Made by a program: the position numbers and the translations under genes. Below are positions 1,589 through 2,821 of a stretch of DNA of 64,000 bases, in pieces (position 1 is the first letter of the stretch; each line of letters starts with the position of its first letter). The notes under the pieces are model-generated. The model made no database searches. It saw only the letters and a list, made by a program, of their open reading frames with translations, and was not told the origin of the DNA. The stretch covers positions 15,125 to 79,124 of the forward strand of contig CAZEGI010000002.1 of assembly GCA_964512105.1 (NCBI GenBank), given 5' to 3'. Origin of the DNA: an uncultured archaeon (GTDB taxonomy: Archaea > Altiarchaeota > Altiarchaeia > IMC4 > CAZEGI01).

Positions 1589-1857
1589 TTATGCAGTTTT
1601 TTGTAGAATCTGGGAAGACATTTTTTAAATGTCTTATCCAGATCCCTATCCTCCATGAGCATTAACTCGAGGCACAGAACAACTAAATCTGCGGTTTCGA
1701 CAGCCCAGTGCTCGTCTTTGCTTTCATAAAGATGCTCAATCTCCTCGGCATGTTTTTTGATAAAGTCGAGGATTATCTTTTTATCTTTATTTTTCTTTAT
1801 TGACAGTTCCGTTATAGTCCGAACTTCGTTCAAAAAATCATCTGTGAGGACTTTCAT
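1585..1857 (-). CDS. MazG-like nucleotide pyrophosphohydrolase (small all-alpha NTP-PPase)
   Basis: 90 aa with an EExxE...E...ADLVVLCLEL motif pattern typical of MazG/HisE-like NTP pyrophosphatases. Confidence 0.45.
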   Translation of the reverse strand: MKVLTDDFLNEVRTITELSIKKNKDKKIILDFIKKHAEEIEHLYESKDEHWAVETADLVVLCLELMLMEDRDLDKTFKKCLPRFYKKLHN

Positions 1858-2263
1858 GTTTCTTGTTGTTGGAATTCCTTATCTCCGAACATATCTGGCA
1901 CGGAAGCGGCCCCTTTATGTGTTCGTCGTAAGACCACTTCTTTCCCCACTCCCGCATGCAGTCTATCAGTTTTTCCAGTTCCTTGCCCTTCTTCGTTATC
2001 GTGTATTCGACCCTCACTGGAACTTCATCCGAGTAAACCTTACGGTTCAGGAGGCCCTCGGCGACCATCTCCTGCAATCTGGCAGAGAGCACCTTCGGCG
2101 TTATCTCGTACAATGATTTCAAAATTTCGTTGTATCTGTGCGTCCTGCCCCTGCATTGAAATTCCCGGAGTATCAGGAGGGTCCATTTCTTACCTACAAT
2201 CTCAAGAGTCCTGTGGACGGGACAGTAGTTCTCCAGCTCCGCCTTGCTTATGTTGCTTTCCAT
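1838..2263 (-). CDS. HxlR-family winged-helix transcriptional regulator
   Basis: CPVHRTLEIVGKKWTLLILREF signature of HxlR/MarR-like HTH. 141 aa. Confidence 0.75.
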   Translation of the reverse strand: MESNISKAELENYCPVHRTLEIVGKKWTLLILREFQCRGRTHRYNEILKSLYEITPKVLSARLQEMVAEGLLNRKVYSDEVPVRVEYTITKKGKELEKLIDCMREWGKKWSYDEHIKGPLPCQICSEIRNSNNKKHESPHR

Positions 2264-2330
2264 GCTATCTGATTGGAAACCAGTATATTTATATAAGTAA
2301 CTATCCTATTTATAGTTTACAGGTGAAAAA

Positions 2331-2579
2331 ATGCGCGGATTGAAGTGCGGAGAATGCGGCAAGAAAATTACTGGGGGTTTTTTGGAGTCGAATATTGACA
2401 AAACCGTTGTGTGTTCAAGGAAATGTGCGGACAAATACAGCGAGAAGTTGCCGTACAAAGGTAAGCCGATTGACCATTATTCGAGGATAACCGGTTACTA
2501 CCAGAACATCAGCGGCTGGAACAAGGGCAAGCTTGCGGAGCTGAGGGACAGGAAGAGGTACAACCTCAAGGACGAATAA
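2331..2579 (+). CDS. Small zinc-ribbon protein carrying an NrdD-type glycyl-radical C-terminal motif (stand-alone class III RNR C-terminal module)
   Basis: CGECG...CSRKC zinc ribbon followed by SRITGYYQNISGWNKGKLAELRDRKRY, which matches the RxxGY...N.GK..E...R glycyl-radical tail of anaerobic ribonucleotide reductases. TATA-like tttatata at ~2298. Confidence 0.55.
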   Translation: MRGLKCGECGKKITGGFLESNIDKTVVCSRKCADKYSEKLPYKGKPIDHYSRITGYYQNISGWNKGKLAELRDRKRYNLKDE

Positions 2580-2821
2580 TGGCCTCAAAAAAACCGCTTG
2601 GCGTTGACGGATGCCCCGGCGCGGACGATATCAAAAGACCAAAACCCGAGCTAAGAACATGCCCGGGATGCGGTTCCGAAATCGAAATATGGAGTGACGA
2701 GGAAAACGCAAATTGCGGAAAATGCGGAAAAACAGTATACAACGACAGGAATCTATGCGTTCAGTGGTGCGAGCATGTGGAAAAATGCATCGGGAACACA
2801 AAAAACAGCAAAAAACCGTAA
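2579..2821 (+). CDS. Small Cys-rich zinc-ribbon protein, hypothetical
   Basis: 80 aa with CPGCG...CGKCG plus CVQWCEHVEKC. The start overlaps the stop of the preceding ORF (ATGGCC after TAA), which suggests co-transcription. Confidence 0.4.
   Translation: MASKKPLGVDGCPGADDIKRPKPELRTCPGCGSEIEIWSDEENANCGKCGKTVYNDRNLCVQWCEHVEKCIGNTKNSKKP

Follow-up and report, generated by a model that had tools for sequence, protein, structure and literature searches.

The stretch of DNA analysed here, called the window throughout, comprises 64,000 nucleotides from an uncultured archaeon of the Altiarchaeota (contig CAZEGI010000002.1, assembly GCA_964512105.1) and carries a small gene, mini-NrdD, whose product joins a four-cysteine metal finger to a glycyl-radical tail of the kind that ends NrdD, the class III (anaerobic) ribonucleotide reductase (RNR). 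Mini-NrdD is probably a free-standing, trans-acting glycyl-radical domain for class III RNR, which in this genome would most simply serve as a spare or alternative radical cofactor; from the comparative sequence evidence, the probability of this reading is put at about 0.6. It is built on the identity of the protein, on the conservation, purifying selection and synteny of its gene, and on the co-occurrence of NrdD and the activase NrdG. When a glycyl radical enzyme meets oxygen, its chain is cut irreversibly at the glycine that bears the radical. The gene and its parts lie in the window as follows.

2331 to 2579 (stop codon included), forward strand: mini-NrdD gene, encoding an 82-residue stand-alone NrdD-type glycyl-radical protein; from the list of open reading frames (ORFs), ATG start.
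2346 to 2426, forward strand: four-cysteine metal finger, TRASH-like, with Cys6, Cys9, Cys28 and Cys32 in the pattern C-x2-C-x18-C-x3-C.
2475 to 2561, forward strand: glycyl-radical tail, His49 to Tyr77, with the SRITG55Y loop and GWNKGK..E..DR.RY, defined by family invariance and alignment to NrdD.
2493 to 2495, forward strand: codon GGT of Gly55, the predicted radical glycine, from the RxxGY motif.

An earlier note on this DNA, made from the letters alone, had quoted the ORF with these limits; the sequence quoted there is present exactly, and the full protein reads MRGLKCGECGKKITGGFLESNIDKTVVCSRKCADKYSEKLPYKGKPIDHYSRITGYYQNISGWNKGKLAELRDRKRYNLKDE. It had also placed the protein at the extreme C-terminus of NrdD, allowing that profile searches might fail to match it; three alignments bear the placement out. 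The Pfam model NRDD (PF13597) matched with 38.9 bits (E 5.9e-10; gathering cut-off 26.2 bits), residues 6-77 falling on profile positions 511-562 of 562. Residues 32-77 aligned with the last 47 positions of the NrdD model TIGR02487 (535-581 of 581) at 35.3 bits, which is far below the whole-protein cut-off of 326 bits because the protein is fragment-sized, as expected. A profile built from the mini-NrdD family aligned with the C-terminal end of the Prevotella copri NrdD structure (8p23, residues 685-735, E 2e-4), in which the counterpart of the tail reads RITGY...WNSGKLAELHDR. Chance therefore cannot account for the likeness to the glycyl-radical tail of NrdD, which is genuine. At E<=1, Pfam returned two models, NRDD and, weakly, TRASH; Gly_radical, the domain of the pyruvate formate-lyase (PFL) type, was not among them.

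The catalytic body of NrdD, a ten-stranded alpha/beta barrel with the finger-loop cysteine, is absent from the 82 residues. A tblastn search of the 64-kb window with seven Altiarchaeota NrdDs matched only 2463-2576, and Pfam scans of 20 large or NrdG-sized window ORFs found neither NrdD nor NrdG, in agreement with the earlier statement that neither adjoins the gene.

The stretch after Cys32 reads SRITGYYQNISGWNKGKLAELRDRKRY, and the tail within it (SRITG55YYQNISGWNKGKLAELRDRKRY) has the two marks of NrdD, an RxxGY loop and then the WN.GK..E..R helix. In an alignment of 18 family members, sixteen tail residues are invariant (S51, R52, I53, T54, G55, Y56, Q58, G62, W63, N64, G66, K67, E70, D73, R74 and R76), as are all four finger cysteines; outside these positions the sequence varies. 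The tails of family members are on average 78% identical to those of the full-length NrdDs resident in the same genomes.

The finger is a different matter. NrdDs have a CxxC...CxxC zinc ribbon 10-20 residues before the radical glycine, and the resident NrdD ribbons read C-x2-C-x10-12-C-x2-C; in mini-NrdD the last pair is C-x3-C and Cys32 lies 23 residues before Gly55, outside that definition. Of the zinc ribbon plus NrdD tail described previously, the four cysteines and the tail stand; the finger has TRASH-like spacing and a CS..C signature, unlike the ribbon of NrdD. The TRASH domain is a C-x2-C-x19-22-C-x3-C metal-binding finger that also occurs in MYM fingers and ribosomal protein L24e. The N-terminal half of mini-NrdD resembles it in cysteine pattern and V-C-S-x2-C signature, but the central spacing is 18 residues here and 26-29 in the relatives. 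The Pfam model TRASH_HVO_1752_C gave E 0.1 and 13.2 bits, below its cut-off of 27. A Foldseek search of the predicted structure against the PDB returned nothing significant; the best local match was a TRASH domain (2das; probability 0.93, TM-score 0.52), at E 0.21. These matches weakly suggest a TRASH-type finger, over which (residues 1-40) the AlphaFold confidence score pLDDT is 76-80. We know of no other fusion of a TRASH domain to a glycyl-radical tail.

The architecture is that of a family. A search of 5.8 billion proteins yielded 15 stand-alone homologues of 77-94 residues and 51-63% identity, several of them from metagenome-assembled genomes (MAGs) of Candidatus Altiarchaeales. In a profile search of 1.84 billion cluster representatives, about 12 clusters at 50% identity matched the whole architecture, mostly from Altiarchaeota. 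The ratio of nonsynonymous to synonymous substitution rates (dN/dS; Nei-Gojobori, unsaturated pairs) is 0.12-0.19 over the whole gene, falling to 0.03-0.06 in the tail, and the identical protein was recovered from ten contigs. Two different family members stand in tandem, with overlapping stop and start codons, at L190 5754-6282 and on the contig carrying P0044; they belong to two tail subtypes, YSRVTGYYTPVKSWNKGK and YSRITGYVQKVSGWNKGK, with no NrdD body nearby, and they may serve two different NrdDs.

Action in trans is strongly indicated by NrdDs that naturally lack the tail. Two Iainarchaeia species, Candidatus Iainarchaeum and another with an NrdD body 71% identical to its own, encode an NrdD that still has the ribbon but terminates just behind it (...CKYCGASQTGEWSKVAC and ...CRYCGTKNIGSWKEISNEVIA), with no RxxGY; the next gene in each locus, a TRASH-plus-tail member of the family, carries the sole R[IV]xG[YF] motif found there. 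The junction between the two genes is a 13-nt gap carrying AGGAGG in one locus and a 4-nt overlap in the other. Behind the small gene comes one for a glutaredoxin/thioredoxin-like protein. L188/L189 continue with an NrdG-type radical SAM gene, a position that the L187 contig does not reach. Among the 120 NrdD homologues closest in sequence, four more (P0238, P0242, P0247 and P0261) end right after the ribbon; one of these four, the intein-containing NrdD at L272, is accompanied by an Altiarchaeales-like family member encoded on the same strand about 900 bp upstream. The pairs, recognised by a ribbon, then a stop and no RxxGY, are located as follows.

L025/L188, 572-2882: Candidatus Iainarchaeum pair (on L188, NrdD body 575-2602 and mini-NrdD 2616-2882).
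L187, 2-2352: pair of the second species.
L272, 3830-8513: tail-less NrdD with the Altiarchaeales-like family member.

The paired genes apparently form a class III RNR of two polypeptides. Unless none of those enzymes is active, a family member can provide the glycyl loop on a polypeptide of its own, and the family probably does so in trans.

The presence of partners in the window's own population was a point on which the earlier note had made its reading depend, and both partners were recovered. The NrdD is P0209, 796 residues long, with 538 bits to TIGR02487 and an intact SRITGY tail (L097 3446-5836; neighbouring genes are glutaredoxin, NifU-like and thioredoxin-like). The activase is an NrdG2, P0354 (247 residues; 155 bits to TIGR02495, cut-off 131). 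Both occur in samples that carry mini-NrdD (ERZ27245614, 3300010302, 3300010319 and SRR5214703/4), and their contigs correlate in tetranucleotide composition with the window at 0.91 (P0209) and 0.92-0.97 (P0354), compared with 0.42-0.69 for other Altiarchaeota and 0.81-0.96 for 8-kb pieces of the window against the rest of it. We assign the two proteins, at the population level, to the population of mini-NrdD on these two lines of evidence. A metagenome scan for NrdG gave no contig matching the window signature (best from a shared sample, r 0.70), and it was the subsequent protein search that gave P0354; in the Altiarchaeota NrdD loci examined, no NrdG was found beside NrdD.

In a scan of one genome per GTDB species, seven related genomes were found to hold both a family member and a full-length NrdD with its own ribbon and a SRITGYYQN..GWNKGK tail.

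CAZJVE01: mini-NrdD locus L017, NrdD locus L026.
JAHIKS01: mini-NrdD locus L021, NrdD locus L028.
NJEG01: mini-NrdD locus L018, NrdD locus L083.
JAYEGX01: mini-NrdD locus L019, NrdD locus L042.
JAGWDQ01: mini-NrdD locus L020, NrdD locus L050.
MTER01: mini-NrdD locus L022, NrdD locus L049.
JAKFXM01: mini-NrdD locus L024, NrdD locus L030.

The idea that mini-NrdD supplies a tail missing from the NrdD of its own genome was rejected here and in these seven relatives, whose NrdDs have intact tails.

Several features of the Altiarchaeota NrdDs themselves were also observed. Many (P0209; L026, L028, L030, L083, L049-L051) bear an extension of about 35 residues after the glycyl-radical tail, ending in ...(W/Y)(D/N)S(D/E).DF or ...YDTSLDF with conserved aromatic and acidic residues; it is absent from the stand-alone proteins and could be a docking peptide for a reductant or the activase. 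One MAG has two tandem NrdD paralogues of 767 and 795 residues (L042 2180-7023), and several Altarchaeum NrdDs reach 1,500-2,100 residues, their homologues showing intein and LAGLIDADG domains (L050 3812-10219; L043; L030).

In the mechanism that we propose, radical formation would begin with NrdG2, whose gene lies elsewhere in the genome, taking a hydrogen atom from Gly55 with the help of S-adenosylmethionine. The activated tail would then dock by inserting in the barrel of an NrdD that lacks a tail, has had it cleaved by oxygen or carries one that is not activated, so placing the radical beside the finger-loop cysteine, and ribonucleotide reduction would resume without the making of a new enzyme of about 800 residues. 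Because the organism's own NrdD keeps its tail, mini-NrdD is redundant in this genome, and the sense of a spare would be specific to genomes like this one, with a tailed NrdD. The family as a whole is better named a trans-acting radical domain because some relatives use it as the apparently only loop of a tail-less NrdD.

Expression is probably controlled from the immediate neighbourhood, whose features are listed below.

1838 to 2263, reverse strand: HxlR/DUF24-type winged-helix regulator of 141 residues, divergent from mini-NrdD (Pfam HxlR, E 3.2e-25).
2288 to 2296, forward strand: TATA-like box, TTTATATAA, read from the sequence.
2300 to 2316, no strand: perfect palindrome ACTAT-N7-ATAGT, a putative operator between the TATA-like box and the start codon.
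2322 to 2326, forward strand: Shine-Dalgarno-like GGTGA, 4 nt before the mini-NrdD ATG.
2579 to 2821, forward strand: cys80, a protein of 80 residues with eight conserved cysteines, a zinc ribbon plus C-x2-WC-x5-C, described from its sequence.

The regulator has an N-terminal Cys-Pro motif (Y-C14-P-V) and sub-threshold matches to the redox regulators RrpA/RrpB, and a homologue adjoins the small gene in 7 of 12 other loci. The palindrome occurs once in the 64 kb (0 expected, 100 shuffles), within the stretch ACTATCCTATTTATAGT, and two other species have it too, a short way ahead of their own small gene (L017 9980-9996 and L019 1287-1303). It is a putative operator, probably for the adjacent HxlR-type regulator, which would thereby control expression of mini-NrdD, possibly upon oxidant exposure; the TATA-like box is assigned its function by analogy with archaeal promoters in general.

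Downstream, the ATG of cys80 overlaps the stop codon of mini-NrdD (TAATG), and the two are therefore probably co-translated. The cys80 protein has the pattern C-P-G ... CPxCG...CxxC ... C-x2-WC-x5-C-x-G-E-E-R-Y, for which Pfam, NCBIfam and PDB searches gave only generic zinc-ribbon matches; the other four cysteines could form a further site for a metal or an Fe-S cluster. Homologues follow the small gene in 5 of 12 other loci. Genes of redox and oxidative-stress type recur nearby: a rubrerythrin lies 1.3 kb downstream of mini-NrdD in the window; the order at L016 is HxlR, mini-NrdD, PAS, cys80, rubrerythrin and desulfoferrodoxin; at L021 the gene directly follows a thioredoxin in a same-strand cluster with an AhpD-like protein and an NrdG2 (152.8 bits, cut-off 131); at L023 HxlR and mini-NrdD precede a thioredoxin-like gene; and at L006 a 2x[4Fe-4S] ferredoxin stands between mini-NrdD and cys80.

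Other surroundings were seen as well. At L017 10771-11463 and L024 3987-4673, the small gene has as neighbours genes for a NifU-like (Nfu) and a DUF166 protein in place of HxlR; to our knowledge DUF166 has no established function. In the window, two ORFs of 132 and 90 residues (1190-1588, forward; 1585-1857, reverse), called as genes in all assemblies of the population, sit between an MnmL/YtqA-type radical SAM gene and the HxlR regulator and match no Pfam or NCBIfam family. Farther away, positions 11400-36000 hold a long glycosylation cluster with Glycos_transf_4, several Glycos_transf_2, three PMT_2-type and a Dpy19-like membrane glycosyltransferase, together with a B12-binding radical SAM protein and a flippase for polysaccharide, which suggests a cell-surface glycan locus.

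Several observations weigh against a spare radical domain. An intact resident tail would occupy the NrdD barrel, leaving the access of mini-NrdD in question, and a second, tail-less NrdD may exist in this genome. The assignment of NrdD and NrdG to the genome rests on sample co-occurrence and tetranucleotide similarity rather than on assembly membership. Mini-NrdD tails and resident NrdD tails show no co-variation (0.778 versus 0.778, permutation p 0.5). The region homologous to NrdD is only about 30 residues, where GrcA shares about 60 with PFL, and the zinc ribbon of NrdD has been swapped for a different finger, which may affect recognition by NrdG. The neighbourhoods vary, RNA polymerase subunits and a restriction-modification system replacing HxlR in the P0007 loci. 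Finally, the AlphaFold model has a mean pLDDT of 63.5 and a poorly defined tail (below 60) that shows, at this low confidence, a hairpin (49-51/56-58) with Gly55 at its tip and a helix (65-73), although a poorly defined prediction is what one would expect for a loop normally buried in a partner.

Four other explanations have to be weighed. An unlikely one is that mini-NrdD is a regulator or decoy that competes for NrdG or for the NrdD barrel and so throttles or buffers radical formation, for example as a sacrificial radical sink. A strictly conserved activase-recognition motif beside an already tailed resident NrdD makes such competition physically plausible, and a switch used in times of stress would suit the neighbouring redox-regulator and oxidative-stress genes just as well; in the split loci, however, nothing else provides the glycyl loop, so that the protein must have a positive role there, and GrcA, the one characterised analogue, restores activity (PMC8683613).

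Slightly harder to sustain is the view that mini-NrdD is an obligate radical subunit, the sole glycyl loop of an undetected second, tail-less NrdD paralogue in the genome. The three loci with partnered tail-less NrdDs, the four homologues ending after the ribbon and the two NrdD genes of some Altiarchaeota (L042) lend it colour. Yet the only NrdD with the source and sample profile of the population is the tailed P0209, the NrdD detected in each of the seven related genomes is tailed too, the 64-kb window has no NrdD body, and in the split cases both genes adjoin or lie within 1 kb.

It is improbable, and somewhat more so, that mini-NrdD is an autonomous radical or metal protein that works with its operon partners (cys80, or a small ferredoxin or PAS protein in some species) and is unrelated to ribonucleotide reduction, its NrdD-like tail being kept only as an activase handle or for another binding role. 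The translational coupling to cys80, the recurrence of that gene downstream and the ferredoxin inserted at L006 would suit such a protein, and TRASH-type fingers are associated elsewhere with metal sensing and trafficking. Against it, the residues conserved in the tail are those conserved in NrdD, the genomic links run to NrdD, NrdG and thioredoxin, and cys80 is absent from most loci, the split ones included.

That the gene is a non-functional leftover, either the 3' remnant of a decayed nrdD that the earlier note had named as a refutation or a gene-calling artefact, is refuted as far as sequence analysis can refute it: short PF13597-matching proteins are indeed common in metagenome databases, many being contig-end fragments, but the upstream frames have no NrdD similarity, the architecture is kept in many species with its own start, Shine-Dalgarno and promoter-like elements, the synteny and the upstream palindrome are conserved, the same protein recurs across contigs, and a decaying remnant is therefore excluded by the conserved family and its strong purifying selection. 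One seemingly split NrdD illustrates the danger. P0019 was considered as a stand-alone canonical-ribbon tail beside a 593-residue NrdD and was rejected, being part of a full-length NrdD that is frameshifted in three assemblies and contiguous in L036. In those three assemblies, from the Joint Genome Institute (L013 110-2243, L014 and L015), this Altiarchaeales NrdD is broken into genes of 593 and 81 residues by two frameshifts some 20 codons from each other. The break is likely to come from faulty sequencing or assembly, or else to mark a pseudogene, and such cases are a trap when stand-alone tails are counted.

A free-standing, trans-acting radical domain for class III RNR thus remains the preferred reading. 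The earlier note knew of no such part for NrdD, and the literature agrees. Spare parts for further glycyl radical enzymes have been a matter of speculation (Andorfer et al., PMC8683613), and a 2026 review states that, among the classes of these enzymes, spare parts have been identified for the formate lyases only (PMC13450708). Neither a split cellular NrdD nor an NrdD radical domain standing alone turned up in our literature searches. Autonomous glycyl radical cofactors are a known concept; we found no description of an NrdD-derived one, of this zinc-finger architecture or of natural two-piece NrdDs.

A similar arrangement exists in viruses with a non-homologous finger. In IMG/VR, 38 stand-alone ORFs of 53-162 residues (L191-L235) share the pattern CHDCG...KC..CF.KDP.LRN...CEVYSRVVGYLRPV.QWN.GK.EF..R. 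Within about 4 kb, an NrdD body was found at only one of 39 loci (L226, which itself holds a full-length NrdD) and NrdG at none (0/39), and PHROGs has no dedicated family for them, only weak matches to the end of the NrdD family phrog_487. One member is the 144-residue protein AJP62049.1 of the archaeal virus ANMV-1 (KP703175.1; L271 4854-5288), annotated as an anaerobic ribonucleoside triphosphate reductase. Like mini-NrdD, it is a stand-alone four-cysteine finger with an NrdD-type tail (...EMYSRIVGYLRPVNQWNKGKLQEFKMRK); its N-terminal region (CHDC...KC..CF.KDP.LRN) cannot be aligned to mini-NrdD, and its tail is of the bacterial and phage type. It has been read as an oxygen-sensitive RNR encoded by ANMV-1, without note of its tail-only nature (PMC4372165). 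Given this family, some viral nrdD annotations are therefore not reductases.

Taken broadly, the chances are about even that these proteins represent the first spare-part or detachable glycyl-radical cofactor beyond PFL, one that is activated by NrdG and plugs into class III RNR in trans. In Altiarchaeota like the present one it would be a back-up or replacement of the oxygen-sensitive tail under the control of a redox regulator; in some DPANN archaea and Altiarchaeales it would be the sole loop of a two-piece NrdD; and in many viruses a version with an unrelated finger would presumably keep host or viral deoxyribonucleotide synthesis running. If so, an NrdD-type module would extend the repair-module principle to the enzyme that makes DNA precursors in anaerobes. 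Judging by the tail-less NrdDs, class III RNR may be able to function with its radical domain on a subunit of its own, which bears on the domain movement between activase and barrel and on RNR evolution. Altiarchaeota move between the anoxic subsurface and oxygenated water, and for such organisms mini-NrdD suggests a quick restart of DNA synthesis. Together with NrdG and NrdD, the 82-residue protein would offer a small, defined test system.

Three further known systems invite comparison. With the C-terminal domain of NrdD itself (phage T4, Gly580; P. copri, 8p23), mini-NrdD shares the RxxGY loop, the WN.GK..E..R helix and a metal module just upstream, but it is without the catalytic barrel, the finger loop and the ATP-cone, and its metal module is C-x2-C...C-x3-C instead of CxxC...CxxC. 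RNR catalytic subunits whose C-terminal module is on a second polypeptide include the class II NrdJa/NrdJb (PMC9669993) and interrupted phage nrdD (PMC3653736), the split phage genes having been reported only as intron, intein or homing endonuclease interruptions (PMC3653736). The Iainarchaeia and L272 pairs likewise have the module on a second polypeptide; the window differs, since no body gene adjoins mini-NrdD in 64 kb and the resident NrdD is complete. Mini-NrdD is also more than a cut-off C-terminus, as the body keeps its own ribbon and mini-NrdD brings a different finger.

The closest parallel is GrcA/YfiD of E. coli, which, like Y06I of phage T4, is a small stand-alone copy of the C-terminal glycyl-radical domain of an enzyme, encoded apart from it; both rescue oxygen-cleaved PFL, and only YfiD and Y06I have been validated (Andorfer et al., PMC8683613). 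GrcA/YfiD likewise occurs in a genome with the complete enzyme and its activase, as mini-NrdD does with P0209 and P0354 by population-level assignment, and the logic would be expected to be the same: the activase would install the radical and the module would replace the damaged domain. The differences are of origin and build. GrcA/YfiD derives from PFL and mini-NrdD from NrdD (Pfam NRDD), with no Gly_radical homology. The homologous stretch of GrcA follows a disordered N-terminus, whereas the shorter one of mini-NrdD follows a folded four-cysteine finger. GrcA is not known as the sole glycyl loop of a tail-less enzyme, as some relatives of mini-NrdD apparently are. Most simply, by this analogy, mini-NrdD would work like GrcA/YfiD while standing outside that family.

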